Shown here: positions 10,971 through 47,450 of the stretch, one piece after another
Position numbering within the stretch: the stretch's first letter is position 1
How the letters are laid out: each line of letters opens with the position of its first letter
Source of the DNA: a virus
Length of the DNA: 64,000 bases
Reading direction: 5' to 3' (one strand)
IMG/VR virus record: IMGVR_UViG_3300042542_004122
Span: 1-64,000 of that record
Program-made: the position numbers and the translations under genes
Notes under the pieces: model-generated
Seen by the model: only the letters and a program-made list of their open reading frames with translations
The model's database searches: none
What the model was told of the DNA's origin: nothing

Positions 10971-11062
10971 TGGTGGAGGCTACTCGACTTGCACAAGTTG
11001 TCCGGACTACCCCTACTGTTTAAGGACGCCCGTTTTACAGACGGGTGTAGGGAATAGCCTCC
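10971..11062 (-). tRNA. atypical tRNA-Tyr(GTA)-like RNA with no D arm
   Basis: 7-bp acceptor GGAGGCT/AGCCTCC, A73, CCA; CCCGT-CTGTAAA-ACGGG; T arm present; no D hairpin. Confidence 0.65.
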
Positions 11063-11103: not shown

Positions 11104-11523
11104 TTATTTTTTATCTAAGTTAGACCAGTTAAGTATTTGATCTAAGGTCGTCGAGTATAAACCATATTTTGTTACTAGTTTATGAACTCTAGGGGCGATG
11201 GTATGTCTGAATAACATCTCCTCTTTGCGACTTTTTTCGACTAGAGAATAAGGTTTACCGGCAATATAAGCTCTCGCTAATTCCGTTGCGCGAGATTCAT
11301 TTCTGACATCCCATCTACGATGGGTTATCAACCCTAATCGTTTAATATGCAGACCATATAGTTCACGATGTTTTTTATATACTGTATCGGAATGAAGGTC
11401 TTCAGTTATTTGATGATAGACCTTATAGTGGTCGATCTGTTTTTTAAGCTTGCGCTCTTCTCGTTTAATAATGCTAGGCTCAAACGCAAGATGCTTAGCT
11501 TTAATTTTTAGTTCTATACTCAT
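11104..11523 (-). CDS. basic helical protein of unknown function, downstream of the amber leader
   Basis: ORF track, 139 aa, GAGGAG SD. Confidence 0.8.
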   Translation of the reverse strand: MSIELKIKAKHLAFEPSIIKREERKLKKQIDHYKVYHQITEDLHSDTVYKKHRELYGLHIKRLGLITHRRWDVRNESRATELARAYIAGKPYSLVEKSRKEEMLFRHTIAPRVHKLVTKYGLYSTTLDQILNWSNLDKK

Positions 11524-11525
11524 AG

Positions 11526-11568
11526 AATCTCCTCTTTTTTATAGTTTATAGTTGGAAAAGAGAAGATT
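11526..11568 (-). promoter_or_regulatory. SD-sequestering hairpin (translational attenuator)
   Basis: AAUCUUCUCUUUU pairs over 13 bp (one G-U) with AAAAGAGGAGAUU, which contains the SD. Confidence 0.75.
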
Positions 11569-11604
11569 AGGAGGCCCTCTGGCCTAGGCTGTCTGCTTAA
11601 ACAT
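11539..11604 (-). CDS. leader peptide MFKQTA(UAG)ARGPPNLLFSNYKL
   Basis: GAGGA SD, ATG at 11604, in-frame TAG at 11586-11584, RGPP, TAA at 11541-11539. Confidence 0.65.
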
Positions 11605-11617
11605 GTTTCCTCAAATT

Positions 11618-11691
11618 TGGTGCCTCTCAGGGGATTTGAACCCCTCTACTCCGTTTTAGAGACGGTCGCATAGCCACTCTGCCAGAGAGAC
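11618..11691 (-). tRNA. amber suppressor tRNA (anticodon CTA)
   Basis: Full cloverleaf; CCGT-CTCTAAA-ACGG; T arm AGGGG-TTCAAAT-CCCCT; A73, CCA. Confidence 0.85.
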
Positions 11692-11860: not shown

Positions 11861-12373
11861 TTAATTTTGTGGTAAAAGAGAAGTAGGAGGACCTAAAGTA
11901 GTCTGCCCCCACCTATCTGATGGCCACATAGGAAGAACTGTTTGAGGTTTAGACTTTGCTTTAATAAGCGCAGCCATTTCCTTATATCCATCCGCAGTAG
12001 GATGAATACCGTCCTTACCTAATTTAACTGTCTCAATTAGTGTATCACTAAACATTGTTGACAAAGATTGCACAACATAGTTAGCTTCCTTATTACAGAA
12101 TATATCATTACAAGGAGGATTAATCCAAATAATATTTGAAGATTTAATCTTATCTCGTACAGATAGAATTTGCAATAACTGTTCTTGTAGAGTTAACCCT
12201 TTATCATTTGTTCCTAGGCTAACTACTACAGTAGCAGCTTTTAGATCTACATGACCGAAGGTTTTACTCCAGTTAGAACTACTAATACCAACAACACTAT
12301 AATTTTTACATTCAGGATAAGCCATACTTATCCCTTTGGCAATACTATCGCCTAGAATAATGCATTCTAACAT
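11861..12373 (-). CDS. SGNH/GDSL hydrolase
   Basis: GDS, SLGTND, DGIHP; start trimmed to avoid the tRNA. Confidence 0.85.
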   Translation of the reverse strand: MLECIILGDSIAKGISMAYPECKNYSVVGISSSNWSKTFGHVDLKAATVVVSLGTNDKGLTLQEQLLQILSVRDKIKSSNIIWINPPCNDIFCNKEANYVVQSLSTMFSDTLIETVKLGKDGIHPTADGYKEMAALIKAKSKPQTVLPMWPSDRWGQTTLGPPTSLLPQN

Positions 12374-24205: not shown

Positions 24206-25052
24206 AGGAAAGCTGAGATTACACTTTCTATATTAGCACTTCAAGAGGTACCCTCTATTTGCAGTAGAGGTTTTCTTGACATCCACCAGATGCCTGCTAA
24301 GGTCACCCAGTATACCAACAGTATCGCCTTTTAAAGTCTGGCAGTAGACTTGACGTTATACGCTACTCTATATTATACCGTCCGCTGACCTTGCGAGCCA
24401 TTAAGCCTTGCGAGCTACGAATTTTTTAATATAAACTGATTTCACCTTGCGGGTTACATCAGACCAAGTTCTCTTTCGAGCTTGGTATTAGATACCTTTC
24501 ACATATAACCGAGGCAGACTTTGCTTTTTTAAAACATTGACTGGATTTGAACCAGCGTCCGTTTGCTTCCAACGCAAATGCTCATCCACTGAGCTACAAT
24601 AATAACCTACTGCGATGTGCTGCCTCGTTGCTCCGTATGGTTTTGACATACAAAATACAACACACCACGTATCTTTCGCGACGCGCGCTACTCGATCGTA
24701 TTTTGCGACGATGTATAAGCATTTATAGCTTATCCACTACCGCTGATACTGCAAAAATGCCTTTAGTTGCTTAAACTTCAGACAGAGATGCTACCCTTTG
24801 TTCTACCAACTGCTAGATTGGTGTTGTAGTGAAGTCGGCACCACCCGTTACATTCCAATAACTTAGGTTCCCCTTTCGGGCCTATAAGCTATCGTTTTCT
24901 CACTACACCTAGTTCATTGTTACCTCCGTTGCCGAAGGCTAGGAACTGGGCTTGCTTAAGTGGGCCACTCGGAGAGTGGTGCGGTTATGTAGGGATTACC
25001 GCTTTTATCACATTACTGTGACTATCCTTATGGGGCTTAAGCGCCCCAACTC
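24205..25052 (-). ncRNA. probable GOLLD RNA (about 850 nt) with an embedded tRNA-like domain
   Basis: No convincing ORF, own promoter and terminator, dense hairpins with GCAA/GAAA tetraloops, inside a phage tRNA array. Confidence 0.7.
24533..24603 (-). tRNA. tRNA-like domain (TGG anticodon, no CCA) inside the large ncRNA
   Basis: TAGCTCAGTGGATGAGC D arm, TTTGC-GTTGGAA-GCAAA, CTGG-TTCAAAT-CCAG; weak acceptor. Confidence 0.7.
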
Positions 25053-25496: not shown

Positions 25497-25572
25497 TGGT
25501 GCCCCAGACAAGACTTGCACTTGTTTCCTTACCCTTACCAAGGGTCTGTTCAGCTATATGAACTTCAGGGGC
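25497..25572 (-). tRNA. tRNA-Thr(GGT)
   Basis: Loop TTGGTAA. Confidence 0.85.
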
Positions 25573-39492: not shown

Positions 39493-40236
39493 TTATAAAC
39501 TAACCTGTAATTTTTCGTATTGATTAATTCTATATTTTAACTCAGGGATGAAAGGTAAAGTTTGTGATTCAAATACTTGAACATCTGCGTTTTCCACAGT
39601 AATTAAAACAACTATTTTTTGTAAGTTTGTTTTAAAAATTTCATTGTGAGCGTAAGCATATGCTGTGCACTGTATAAAATAATCTTTAATATCTTTTATC
39701 TGTTTTTTCTTTTTAGATGTTTTAAAGTCTATTACTGCCGGAATTTTATTCCACTCTCCAAACATATCAACTCGTCCAGCATATCTCAAATGCTTAGACC
39801 AAACAGGTATTTCTTGTGCCCAAACATTAGTTACGCCTTTTTGTGTAGCCTGTATGAGATTAGTAATCATTTTCTGAGTAGTAATTTCTTCATTTAAAAT
39901 ATCAGTTGCCCAAGAGTTAGATCCATCCCAATATCTTTCTAGATATTTGTGCACTATCTCTCCACGATCCGTAGCAGCTTTAGATACACGCGCTGCCTCT
40001 TCTTCTCCTACTTTATCTTTCCAGCGTTGCAACCAGATATTATTAGCCGTTTTTCCTAAAATAGTAGTGACGCTAGGAAAACTACCATCAGGTGTTTTAT
40101 ATAGCCTGCCTTTTTCGGTAGTTTCTGCTGTTACCTCTTTGCATACGGAATAATCAAAATTTGTCAATTTGGTTACCAAACACGTCCCATCCAGGTCTTT
40201 GCGTTCTTGCAAACATTTCCAGATATGGGCCATCAA
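39493..40236 (-). CDS. PD-(D/E)XK (Cas4-like) exonuclease; true start probably near 40166
   Basis: PSVTTIL, RG..VH, AGRVD, IDFKTS, Q..AY. Confidence 0.85.
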   Translation of the reverse strand: MMAHIWKCLQERKDLDGTCLVTKLTNFDYSVCKEVTAETTEKGRLYKTPDGSFPSVTTILGKTANNIWLQRWKDKVGEEEAARVSKAATDRGEIVHKYLERYWDGSNSWATDILNEEITTQKMITNLIQATQKGVTNVWAQEIPVWSKHLRYAGRVDMFGEWNKIPAVIDFKTSKKKKQIKDIKDYFIQCTAYAYAHNEIFKTNLQKIVVLITVENADVQVFESQTLPFIPELKYRINQYEKLQVSL

Positions 40237-40753
40237 ATAGTCTTTCTATTCTGTCATAGGCTTCGTCAGGTTTTCTACTATGCTCACGTTGTTGAGATAT
40301 GATTACTTGTCTAACACCTTTATCTTTACGCTCTAAAGTTTTACCTCGTCTACCGAGTAGACATAGCTCTGCGTTAGCTCTAGTGTAATATCCTAGATTC
40401 ATGCGTATATCTTTATCTACATCTAAGGCTTTAAGATTGGCTGTTTTATTAGTTTTTACCCAAGTAAATGCACAGGTTTTATATTCAAATCCCCACGCTT
40501 TCATTACTTCGAAACTTTTGTCCAAGATAGGAAAAGTTACCCACATAAATAAGATTGAGTTAGGAGCCGCAATCTTCTTAATCGGTAAATTTTTAATATC
40601 TTCCAAAGTCATAACCTTATAATCTGGACTTCTATCTCCACCAGCTTCTGAGTAGGTTTCAAATGTCCAAGGTGGATCGGCGTAAATAACCGAATACCGT
40701 TTATCTGTATTAAATATGTCTATATTCACTATTACCTCAAAGACATTAACCAT
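40154..40753 (-). CDS. MT-A70 family N6-adenine methyltransferase (likely GTG start at 40729)
   Basis: IYADPPW, FTWVK, HSRKP, EMFAR. Confidence 0.9.
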   Translation of the reverse strand: MVNVFEVIVNIDIFNTDKRYSVIYADPPWTFETYSEAGGDRSPDYKVMTLEDIKNLPIKKIAAPNSILFMWVTFPILDKSFEVMKAWGFEYKTCAFTWVKTNKTANLKALDVDKDIRMNLGYYTRANAELCLLGRRGKTLERKDKGVRQVIISQQREHSRKPDEAYDRIERLFDGPYLEMFARTQRPGWDVFGNQIDKF

Positions 40754-40786
40754 AGGACTATAAATCCCATGGCTAATATTATTATA

Positions 40787-41056
40787 CTAATCATCTTCAT
40801 CTACCATCTCACTACCAGATAGCATCATATGTTTCACTGATTCAATGCCACCTATAGCCAAGATAATATCAAATTCTCCTGCTATTATGGAAAATATTTT
40901 ATTATCAGATCCCATACCCACAGCAACTATACCGGATAATTTACCTTGGTCTATAAGGTTATGTATCTCGCCTACAATTTTTAGCATCATTTCTTTGGGA
41001 GATGTGGTTCCGTCTTTTTTACTTTTTAGGTCTTGAAAATTAATAATATTATCCAT
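40787..41056 (-). CDS. hypothetical protein
   Basis: ORF track. Confidence 0.65.
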   Translation of the reverse strand: MDNIINFQDLKSKKDGTTSPKEMMLKIVGEIHNLIDQGKLSGIVAVGMGSDNKIFSIIAGEFDIILAIGGIESVKHMMLSGSEMVDEDD

Positions 41057-41489
41057 TATAACAACACTCGCTTGCTAAAGTATCTACTTCTTCATTTTCT
41101 GGTATGCCAGAATGGGCAGGAACCCATTTCCATTCTATAGATATATGAGAAGATAGAAGATCTAGCTCTTTCCAAAGGTCTTGATTTTTTACAGGCTTAC
41201 GGTTAGCAGTTTTCCAACCATTCTTTTTCCAAGAGTGAATCCACTCTGTTATACCCTTTTTAAGGTATTGGCTATCAGTATTAACCTCTATAGTATCTAT
41301 TTCGAGTGTTACGTTTTTAATACCTTCTATAGCTGCTCGTAGTTCCATCCTATTATTTGTAGTATTAGACTCGCGACCTATTACTATCTTAGGATCTTTA
41401 TCCAAGTAGTAAATTTTAGCCGCAAACCCTCCAGGACCGGGGTTACCTTTACAGGCTCCGTCACAAAATATTATAGCTCTATTAGTCAT
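41049..41489 (-). CDS. rnhA: ribonuclease HI
   Basis: DGACKGNPGPGG, TTNNRMEL, TDSQY, KNQDLW. Confidence 0.93.
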   Translation of the reverse strand: MTNRAIIFCDGACKGNPGPGGFAAKIYYLDKDPKIVIGRESNTTNNRMELRAAIEGIKNVTLEIDTIEVNTDSQYLKKGITEWIHSWKKNGWKTANRKPVKNQDLWKELDLLSSHISIEWKWVPAHSGIPENEEVDTLASECCYNG

Positions 41490-46139: not shown

Positions 46140-46451
46140 CTGACGTCGATATTGTTTTAGCACAAGCAAGAAGATTATATCATCATTATACTAATTTAGA
46201 ATCTCCTAATAGACAATTCTCTAGAGTAGCTGATGATTTTGGTTCGATAGTAGAAAATTTAGAATACATTCAATCAAAATTACATAGTGTTTCAACTAAA
46301 ACATAACTACTTTAAAGGTCAAGTCGTAGAATTTAGTTATAATTACTGGTCCATCTATAATGAGGCTGGTAAGCTAATTCTGACTACTAAAGATAAAAAA
46401 TATGCTGAGGCTAAATTGCAACAACTAAATAAGGCTTTAGCAGACAAGATC

Positions 46452-46717
46452 TCGTTGATAGCAGCGAAATAAGCATACTGGACACGGGGGCAGTGCCCGT
46501 CATCTCCACCATAAATATGTCGATTAGTAAACATTGACATATTTATAATGGGGATGAATTAGGATCGACAGGTGTGTAAAGGTTGAAGTAGAGATAGGTG
46601 CGCGAGCGACCTCTAATCGCAAGAAATCAATAAATGCTAACGATAATAGCATCGAAGAGATCCGCCTAGCGGCATAACTTCTGCGGTATGGGCTCCACCG
46701 TATTACCCAACGGGCCT
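46452..46717 (+). ncRNA. ssrA: two-piece (permuted) tmRNA, tag ANDNSIEEIRLAA
   Basis: Acceptor piece ending CATCTCCACCA (46511), intervening hairpin, GGGGATGAA..GGATCGAC (46550), tag ORF 46636-46677. Confidence 0.92.
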
Positions 46718-46739
46718 ATTCCTTTTAGAAAGATTTTTA

Positions 46740-47450
46740 ATGTTTATTTATTGGAGAGTATGCGAATTACAAAAATCTATTAGCTACGTTAATAGATGGA
46801 AAAACTATAACAAAACAGACATCTTAAAAAGATGCTGGTTATCAGTTCAGAGTAGCGTATCTCCAGACGATCAAATCTATCTAATAGAAGATAATGTAAC
46901 CCATGAGACTTTAACTTGGTTAAGAGAGACGTGCAAAGCAAAGCTAAGTATCATACACGTACCAGAACATGCATGGGAATATCATCAACATACAGTAACC
47001 TTGATAGATACGCTAGAATCCTCTGTTAAACAGTATGAGCAAGATGTTCATCTTATTTTAGAAGATGATTATCTGTTTACTCCAAACGGATTAAATACTT
47101 TTAAGTTGTCCGCTGAAAATTGGAATCAAGGATTTATAGCTCCTTACGACTATATTGATAGATATAAAGAAATAAAACCCACTCAAGTTCTTTTAGGCCC
47201 AGATAGACATTGGCGTACAGTAGATAGTATTACTATGACTGTAGCAGCCAAAGGTTTTATCTGGGTTAAGTATTTAAAAGACTTAAAAGATGCAGCTCCT
47301 ACCAGCAATGATAAAGTCTTCGATAAGATTTTATCTGAAGTGCCATGTATCTCTCCAATGCCTTCTTTATGCAGTCATCTTACCGAACATCATAATAGTC
47401 CTTACATGGATATAGAAAATATCTGGAAATATTACGAGAACAATCTATGA
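46740..47450 (+). CDS. GT-A fold glycosyltransferase-like protein
   Basis: ILEDDYLF DxD-like motif. Confidence 0.65.
   Translation: MFIYWRVCELQKSISYVNRWKNYNKTDILKRCWLSVQSSVSPDDQIYLIEDNVTHETLTWLRETCKAKLSIIHVPEHAWEYHQHTVTLIDTLESSVKQYEQDVHLILEDDYLFTPNGLNTFKLSAENWNQGFIAPYDYIDRYKEIKPTQVLLGPDRHWRTVDSITMTVAAKGFIWVKYLKDLKDAAPTSNDKVFDKILSEVPCISPMPSLCSHLTEHHNSPYMDIENIWKYYENNL

Follow-up and report, generated by a model that had tools for sequence, protein, structure and literature searches.

We describe a compact cassette on the minus strand of a phage genome in which a tRNA with anticodon CUA, a short upstream open reading frame (uORF) interrupted by an in-frame TAG, and a hairpin that hides a Shine-Dalgarno (SD) sequence lie ahead of a gene for a basic protein of 139 amino acids (aa). 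The stretch of DNA that was analysed, hereafter the window, is the first 64 kb (64,000 nucleotides, nt) of the 72,161-bp virus record IMGVR_UViG_3300042542_004122, for which CheckV gives a completeness of 67%. The cassette is likely to act as an ON switch at the level of translation, with readthrough of the leader stop by the phage's own suppressor tRNA as its input; in the absence of such readthrough, the SD of the 139-aa gene probably stays covered. The evidence for this comprises the anatomy of the cassette, its conservation in related loci, the covariation of the hairpin arms, the spacing of the stop, the Pro-Pro codons and the hairpin, and one matched change of anticodon and leader stop. 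An earlier reading of the window from its letters alone (the original prediction) had placed a tRNA(CUA), an SD-led uORF and a 13-bp hairpin on the SD of the 139-aa gene, and all of these were found at their proposed positions by inspection of the sequence, ARAGORN, Rfam and minimum free energy (MFE) folding. In the order in which they are read, the features of the cassette are as follows.

11618-11691, minus strand: suppressor tRNA with anticodon CUA (ARAGORN; Rfam RF00005, 48.8 bits at 11621-11691)
11608-11612, minus strand: leader SD, GAGGA
11587-11604, minus strand: first part of the leader, ATG TTT AAG CAG ACA GCC (MFKQTA); the ATG is at 11604-11602, 13 nt after the tRNA
11584-11586, minus strand: gating in-frame TAG, next base G
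11569-11583, minus strand: post-TAG codons GCC AGA GGG CCT CCT (A-R-G-P-P), with RGPP at 11569-11580
11556-11568, minus strand: 5' arm of the hairpin (anti-SD), AAUCUUCUCUUUU, starting directly after the Pro-Pro codons (MFE folds)
11539-11555, minus strand: hairpin loop, whose last three bases are the TAA of the extended leader frame and adjoin the 3' arm
11526-11538, minus strand: 3' arm of the hairpin, AAAAGAGGAGAUU, with the SD of the 139-aa gene (MFE folds)
11104-11523, minus strand: gated gene for the 139-aa basic protein

After MFKQTA and the TAG, the frame of the uORF continues with ARGPPNLLFSNYKL and ends at a TAA at 11541-11539.

The leader grammar is conserved

Leaders were read in two sets of upstream regions, one of 79 regions that reduced to 63 distinct leaders and a wider one of 163 loci that yielded 89 distinct regions of 240 nt. 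The tally of the wider set omits 13 loci in which the N-terminus was off-pattern; their leaders were read singly where upstream sequence existed. An SD and start codon, zero to nine codons, TAG, two to six codons and Pro-Pro follow one another in 59 of the 63 distinct leaders. This grammar is also present in 87 of the 89 regions of the wider set, with Pro-Pro no more than nine codons after a gating stop that is TAG in 86 cases and TGA in one. The original prediction's expectation that homologous leaders would keep an in-frame TAG and Pro-Pro was thus borne out. As a background, among the 169 open reading frames (ORFs) of 60 aa or more in the 72-kb record, the same detector fired before 3, one being the cassette itself.

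The first part of the leader is free to vary (MEKLSA, MKDFRL and MFKQTA are examples) and spans 1-10 codons across the family. In each of the 59 distinct leaders, the stop is preceded by an in-frame start and an SD-like motif. The stop is the seventh codon in 37 of these, a first part of six codons being the mode, and eight are bare start-stop units. One locus (L040) has a 65-codon ORF ahead of the TAG.

Beyond the stop, R, K or H immediately precedes Pro-Pro in 72 of the 87 leaders and R-x-PP occurs in 10 more, giving a basic residue one or two places before Pro-Pro in 82 of 87. Another stop follows Pro-Pro immediately in 76 leaders. The other 11, among them that of the window, are elongated forms without a stop right after Pro-Pro, and their frame ends beside or over the main start, with stop-to-ATG distances of 15, 18, 28 and -4 nt. 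The weight that had been placed on RGPP needs correction for the family: RGPP occurs in only 3 of the 87 distinct leaders and RAPP in one (L022), and the common form is (R/K/H)-Pro-Pro-stop. Arg codons within the motif vary between CGA, CGC, CGT and AGA, and the third positions of the Pro codons vary too. As read from these sequences, the constraint on the leader acts on the peptide, not on the RNA.

In classical context studies, a purine after TAG favours suppression. Among the 59 distinct leaders, the TAG is followed by a purine in 56 (A in 44, G in 12), by C in three and by T in none.

A different arrangement is seen in the L073 group and in L210, where a conserved ORF of about 95 codons separates an early stop, M-S-(L)-stop (M-S-L-TAG in L073), from the final PP-stop, at 1150-1500 in L073 and about 300 nt upstream of the gene in L210; it has no internal start near its beginning. 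This ORF may encode a second protein that would be made only by readthrough.

The hairpin arms covary and lie where a held ribosome would sit

In the window, the arms pair over 13 bp with one G:U (11568-11556 with 11538-11526), and folding of 11500-11620 gives an MFE structure that includes the hairpin. The portion that runs from the Pro codons up to the ATG folds at -11.7 kcal/mol (z = -4.94). When the SD was counted as paired if at least 6 of the 11 bases of the SD window pair with the arm, it was paired with the arm beside the Pro codons in the MFE folds of 58 of the 59 distinct leaders, and the anti-SD hairpin that had been expected of homologous leaders was thus present in nearly all of those folded. 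The z-score of the leader fold averaged -3.4 over the 59 leaders and was below -2 in 52.

The stem sequences diverge widely between leaders, and the arms covary. The 5' and 3' arms of the same leader pair at a mean of -13.8 kcal/mol, versus -8.0 kcal/mol (standard deviation 2.8) when the two arms come from different loci. The mean of the own pairs was not reached in any of 5000 permutations, and the same held in a subset of 47 distinct SD arms. Per-sequence folds and this comparison of own and cross-locus duplexes replaced a consensus approach, RNAalifold on a MAFFT alignment of 46 leaders, which yielded no structure, as the arms shift in position with respect to the anchors.

The string CCTCCTA..TTCTCTTTT had been considered as a repeated intergenic motif, a similar string being present near 11880. 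This was rejected: the 19-nt string, which spans the Pro-Pro codons and the 5' arm, is unique in the window at up to three mismatches.

Counted to the first paired base, the gating stop (its first base) lies a median of 19 nt away (range 13-24 nt; 18 nt in the window), and the second Pro codon (again its first base) a median of 5 nt away (range -2 to 9 nt; 3 nt in the window). A ribosome holds about 11-15 nt downstream of its P-site codon unpaired. Together, this footprint and these distances indicate that a ribosome terminating at the UAG would spare the hairpin, whereas one held at Pro-Pro would lie on the 5' arm. The original prediction had deduced this geometry, with the UAG short of the hairpin and a ribosome stalled at RGPP covering the anti-SD, from the window, and the two sets of distances extend it to the whole family.

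The suppressor tRNA accompanies the leader

The tRNA(CUA) of the window has a G1-C72 pair, A73, an encoded CCA and a short variable loop. ARAGORN applies the label 'tRNA-Pyl' to any CUA anticodon; the window tRNA fits the general tRNA model over its full length (48.8 bits). The features that bear on its amino-acid identity are A73, a D arm like that of tRNA-Leu and the short variable loop, a combination that gives no single answer. Related copies of this tRNA number 73, 52 of them distinct, of which 51 have a CUA anticodon and one a UCA anticodon. They share G1, most have A73, and most have the anticodon loop CUCUAAA (UUCAAAA in the UCA copy).

We determined how regularly such a tRNA is found near the gene in two scans, the first covering 23 viral loci and the second, a profile scan, covering the best 80 of 145 relatives. 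A tRNA(CUA) was present in all 23 loci of the first scan; 22 of these have it on the same strand, ending 94-129 nt upstream. The exception (L002) has its tRNA(CUA) about 360 nt downstream and still has the leader. In the second scan, 71 of those 80 loci have a same-strand tRNA(CUA) within the 1.5-kb flanks, at 94-129 nt in 58, so the linkage to a nearby tRNA(CUA) that had been expected holds across the relatives. The suppressor is the only tRNA of the stretch fetched in 13 loci of the second scan. Because the other tRNAs that accompany it vary between loci, the tRNA, leader and gene appear to travel together as a unit.

In L103, a tRNA(UCA) lies 108 nt upstream of a leader that reads ATG TTG TGA ... 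GCG CCA CCT TAA, that is, ML-TGA-VYAPP-TAA. Two metagenome contigs (L144 and L145) show the same arrangement of tRNA(UCA) and TGA leader, so an assembly error in L103 is unlikely. The nearest relatives of this phage, at 62% protein identity, all have TAG leaders, and the flanks fetched for three of the five include a tRNA(CUA). By this comparison, one lineage has switched anticodon and leader stop together, from CUA/TAG to UCA/TGA.

The cassette is kept down to about 40% protein identity and occurs in a cyanophage and a roseophage. Synechococcus phage BUCT-ZZ01 (Kyanoviridae; the host given in its record is S. elongatus PCC 7942) combines the gene with a tRNA(CUA) and a leader reading MGGDAS-TAG-INLKPP-TAA. 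In Bacteriophage DSS3_MAL1, whose record gives no host, the gene is likewise present, with MKS-TAG-IRPPP-TGA as its leader and a tRNA that bears the annotation 'tRNA-Pyl'. Both gated genes are annotated as hypothetical. The cassette was also found on a 156-kb contig binned with a Robiginitomaculum metagenome-assembled genome. Phage NCTB has a distant homologue only (E = 5e-4), without the grammar.

DSS3_MAL1, the roseophage, carries a large translation and tRNA toolkit beside the cassette. Its annotation (L181-L183) lists more than 40 tRNAs, a tmRNA, a peptidyl-tRNA hydrolase, a CCA-adding enzyme, a tRNA-His guanylyltransferase and an RNA ligase.

UAG is not visibly recoded elsewhere

A phage suppressor tRNA could serve a genome in which TAG has become a sense codon, and no such recoding of TAG is visible in the window's own record, DSS3_MAL1 or a complete relative of 170,832 bp (G006). 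The coding density of the record is 84.0% with genetic code 11, 86.0% with TAG as sense, 85.8% with TAA as sense and 83.5% with TGA as sense, and TAG ends 14 of its 111 ORFs. The density of G006 is 91.2% with code 11 versus 93.8% with TAG as sense. Among 13 in-frame TAG candidates in G006, one lies in called genes, where the gene downstream has a start of its own, 21 nt past the TAG; this pair, at 95907-96695, matches no PHROG family. DSS3_MAL1 gave no recoding signal, and there the split-gene test is uninformative because a GC content of 60% yields long shadow ORFs.

The sole in-frame TAG candidate of the window's own record, at 40154-41095 on the minus strand, was rejected as readthrough at this position is unsupported. 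It consists of a methyltransferase-like ORF (DPPW motif by eye) preceded in frame by an 89-codon ORF that ends with TAG, with three TAGs in frame. The original prediction's statement that no other gene seemed to need UAG readthrough agrees with these results.

In G006, the series TAG, one to five codons, Pro-Pro and stop occurs once genome-wide, at the cassette, and the suppressor is one of 33 tRNAs. The suggestion that the suppressor tRNA may exist for this cassette is consistent with the absence of visible recoding, with the loci in which the suppressor is the lone tRNA of the stretch fetched and with the single occurrence of the grammar in G006, but none of these proves it. Readthrough of ordinary genes that end with TAG could matter too.

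Proposed mechanism

In the resting state, the SD of the 139-aa gene would be locked in the hairpin. Ribosomes would start on the leader, and where RF1 wins at the UAG they would leave 13-24 nt before the hairpin, so that the gene stays off. Where the charged tRNA(CUA) wins, the ribosome would read through and reach the basic-Pro-Pro motif a few codons on. There it would dwell, either through slow termination at Pro-Pro-stop or through an elongation arrest of the RGPP/RAPP type, and its footprint would cover the 5' arm, free the SD and allow the gene to be translated. In the form found in the window, which has no stop after RGPP, a ribosome that escapes the arrest would melt the hairpin and terminate at the TAA 15 nt before the main ATG. 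Because the escaping ribosome would melt the hairpin anyway, readthrough in the elongated forms would mean ON with or without a strong stall. The output of the switch would track how much working suppressor tRNA there is relative to termination at the UAG.

Several points weigh against this ON switch. We infer that the UAG is read through, that ribosomes stall, that the hairpin opens, and in which direction the gene is regulated. The 121-nt fold of 11500-11620 is unexceptional (z = -1.64), with 15 of 200 shuffles folding as well, and most leaders have (R/K/H)PP-stop, not the RAPP or RGPP for which arrest has been shown. The switch of anticodon and stop is a single evolutionary event, seen on three contigs of one phage. 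Distant members of the family are scarcely sampled, three single-protein scans having returned one, zero and zero loci. Some contigs that bear a leader have no tRNA(CUA) in the sequence that could be searched, and 2 of the 89 regions lack the grammar. One of these (L080) has no leader. In the other (L180, 450-600), MRLNF-TGA is followed by RAPP in the +1 frame without a start codon of its own, and no tRNA lies within 600 nt; it may be a variant that depends on a frameshift or on quadruplet decoding, or else a leader in decay. Finally, the tRNAs of five loci (L083, L086, L098, L218 and L261), all just upstream of the leader, have C-rich anticodon loops (CCCUAA, CCCCUAA, 8-base) without U33 and are listed by ARAGORN as 'tRNA-?(Arg|Pyl)' or Arg(CCU). 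The leader TAG directly follows the start codon in L083, L098 and L218, and is preceded by two codons in L086 and three in L261.

Alternative readings

It is possible, if less probable than a response to the tRNA, that the same architecture and ON logic report the state of the host, through RF1 activity or through charging of the suppressor by the host synthetase and amino-acid supply. The phage tRNA would then be a constant probe, and the cassette an attenuator-like sensor of translation capacity rather than a check on the tRNA. The gap between tRNA and leader is 13-30 nt and holds no promoter-like site in the window; tRNA and leader are probably made together, which would make the tRNA a poor independent signal. 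The purine that follows the TAG in 56 of 59 leaders, which sets the competition between tRNA and RF1, and the movement of the module as a unit, sometimes with the only tRNA of the stretch fetched, are also in line with a host-state input. However, the sequence does not separate such an input from the amount of tRNA.

A broader version of the ON switch is conceivable, and we hold it to be unlikely. Here the cassette would be a self-contained code-state circuit, with the tRNA serving as a signal and not to decode phage genes, in which the 139-aa protein acts back on termination or on readthrough ribosomes and so sets and locks in the level of UAG readthrough during infection. The protein might, for example, be an antagonist of RF1 or a rescue or quality-control factor. 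If true, this would give orphan suppressor tRNAs in phages with the standard code a function and provide a possible stepping stone to stop-codon reassignment.

Termination at the UAG could itself regulate the gene, by a pause or coupling at the MFKQTA-stop minigene, with Pro-Pro-stop as a backstop and the tRNA unrelated. Short stop-ended minigenes can regulate alone, and 8 of 59 leaders consist of start and stop only. Yet a ribosome at the UAG ends 13-24 nt before the arm, a backstop needs no conserved basic-Pro-Pro (82 of 87), and both the tRNA linkage (71 of 80) and the co-change from CUA/TAG to UCA/TGA would be coincidences, which makes this explanation very unlikely.

Nor do we give much credence to the opposite sign of regulation, in which readthrough turns the gene down because ribosomes arrested at Pro-Pro cause mRNA cleavage or queueing and the message is destroyed or blocked ahead of the gene, as a negative feedback on suppression. 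Stalled ribosomes can indeed trigger mRNA cleavage and tmRNA action, and these phages carry their own tmRNA. However, the SD is already sequestered in 58 of 59 resting folds, so a further OFF signal has little target. Moreover, the arm is placed exactly where a held ribosome would melt the hairpin, and the ends of the elongated frames at 15, 18, 28 and -4 nt from the ATG form a layout of positive coupling.

That the pattern arose by chance, or is a fossil of a once-recoded genome without function today, would suit a phage that is not recoded today and the unremarkable 121-nt fold of the window, but is scarcely credible and already contradicted by the comparative data, namely 87 of 89 leaders versus 3 of 169 background ORFs, covarying arms, synonymous variation in the motif and retention to about 40% protein identity in cyanophage and roseophage.

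The gated protein

The protein behind the leader belongs to a large family that is wholly uncharacterized. A Pth2-like gene as the gated product was considered and rejected for this lineage: PF01981 and PF01195 had no match in the record, and PF01981 had none in five large relatives. A word-index search identified 222 relatives among 229 candidates scored, and an exhaustive profile search put the family at 2622 representative clusters at E ≤ 0.001. In an RNA-library contig of a variant strain, 9 of 13 differences in the 139-aa gene fall on third codon positions. AlphaFold (AF2) with 32 relatives gave an all-helical model with a mean predicted confidence score (pLDDT) of 91.5. The protein matched no Pfam or PHROG family and had no usable match in the ESM Atlas; its model had no Foldseek match in the Protein Data Bank (PDB) at E ≤ 0.001, and the best Z in a wide VIA-align search was 8.0, all matches being generic helical hairpins. 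Longer fused forms were considered and set aside, as the one example, a 333-aa protein with PF00867, is probably a gene-calling fusion. A predicted complex of the 139-aa protein with Escherichia coli RF1 scored 0.00, a value that speaks neither for nor against binding.

Relation to known regulatory systems

ApdA, ApdP, ApcA and SecM (RAGP) are described as regulatory arrest peptides of the RAPP/RGPP type (PMC12992588, PMC10951233, PMC7897499), and RAPP and RGPP as causing a robust arrest that EF-P does not overcome (PMC12992588). The text of PMC12992588 does not contain the words phage, suppressor or stop codon. The cassette resembles these systems in that a small upstream ORF ends in Arg-(Ala/Gly)-Pro-Pro (RGPP in the window, RAPP in L022) and in that geometry, pairing and covariation place a held ribosome so as to unmask the SD of the next gene. 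Unlike in the arrest peptides, the motif is reached only after readthrough of an in-frame stop, the first part of 1-10 codons has no secretion or membrane segment to pull the arrest free, and the regulated gene lies outside the protein-localization pathway and has no Pfam or PHROG family. Most leaders of the cassette also differ in having (R/K/H)PP-stop rather than RAPP or RGPP. A 2002 report by Hayes is said to have found that C-terminal prolines disturb termination.

In leader-peptide attenuation of the ermC and cat type, an SD-led minigene precedes an SD-hiding hairpin, and a paused ribosome opens the 5' arm, the trigger being a ribosome-bound antibiotic. In the cassette, too, a minigene with its own SD precedes a hairpin in which the SD of the regulated gene is sequestered, whereas the trigger would be the contest of tRNA and release factor at a stop codon. 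Nothing in the sequence of the cassette calls for a ligand, and the conserved stop and linked tRNA point to another trigger. A similar use of an early in-frame stop as a sensor of termination efficiency is known from prfB, the RF2 gene, where escape from a UGA occurs by +1 frameshifting and the regulated product is the release factor itself. In the cassette, ribosomes would instead pass the stop with the help of a dedicated suppressor tRNA, and what is regulated is a small protein unrelated to the release factor.

The closest engineered parallel is a synthetic tna leader with a TAG, in which expression needs an amber suppressor tRNA (Liu, Qi, Yanofsky and Arkin 2011, summarized in the review PMC6412442). 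Both make downstream expression depend on a suppressor through a TAG in the leader; the engineered switch acts by Rho-dependent transcription termination, while the cassette is natural, would act on access to the SD and has its own tRNA.

Phages with reassigned stop codons are reported to carry suppressor tRNAs and in-frame TAGs in many genes (10.1101/2021.08.26.457843, PMC11210395). The phages described here share with them a phage-encoded tRNA(CUA) and a standard-code host, and differ in that no recoding is visible in the 72-kb record, DSS3_MAL1 or G006.

Suppressor tRNAs occur in many phages with the standard code, and to our knowledge nobody knows what they are for. The cassette offers a concrete, conserved target for them, a leader that would be readable only by that tRNA. 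A search of the full-text literature, whose coverage leaves out subscription journals and supplements, found no description of such a cassette. If the ON switch is real, it would be the first natural case known to us of expression gated by stop suppression via an arrest leader. It would also widen the uses of Pro-Pro arrest motifs beyond protein secretion and provide a natural in vivo reporter of readthrough. As the cassette is present in two cultured phages, BUCT-ZZ01 and DSS3_MAL1, it can be tested now.

Other features of the record

The record has a GC content of 37% and has been found repeatedly in lake and river metagenomes. It contains the phage replication genes for an NAD ligase and a DnaB-like helicase. 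ARAGORN and Rfam identified 28 tRNA genes in it, together with a permuted tmRNA and a GOLLD RNA. Further RNA features and a promoter-like site in the window are the following.

10971-11062, minus strand: tRNA-Tyr-like sequence, directly 3' of the 139-aa gene
11102-11074: promoter-like site
24210-24668, minus strand: GOLLD RNA (Rfam RF02032, 205.3 bits, full length)
25500-25572, minus strand: tRNA (Rfam, 43 bits; not among the ARAGORN calls)
46419-46768, plus strand: permuted (alpha-type) tmRNA with the tag peptide ANDNSIEEIRLAA (ARAGORN, Rfam)

The tRNA-Tyr-like sequence consists of an acceptor stem, an anticodon arm with GUA, a long variable region, a T arm and CCA, and lacks a normal D arm. 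Neither ARAGORN nor Rfam at gathering score called it, and no ordinary tRNA-Tyr or tRNA-Ser was called within the window. In BUCT-ZZ01 and DSS3_MAL1, the tmRNA sits in the same tRNA-rich region as the cassette.

Contigs from RNA libraries are taken here as evidence of presence, not of transcription, and parts left uncovered in run X20 carry no meaning alone. One contig of this run (depth 16.1) joins position 11134 to 11634, with 6 bases common at the joint. It is without the 499 bases in between (11135-11633), so that the suppressor tRNA lacks its 3' part and the leader is gone, as is almost the whole 139-aa gene. This joined contig is a natural variant without the cassette, represented by one contig only. 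Lastly, a tRNA-Pro(UGG)-like fold is present at 24532-24603, inside the GOLLD RNA.

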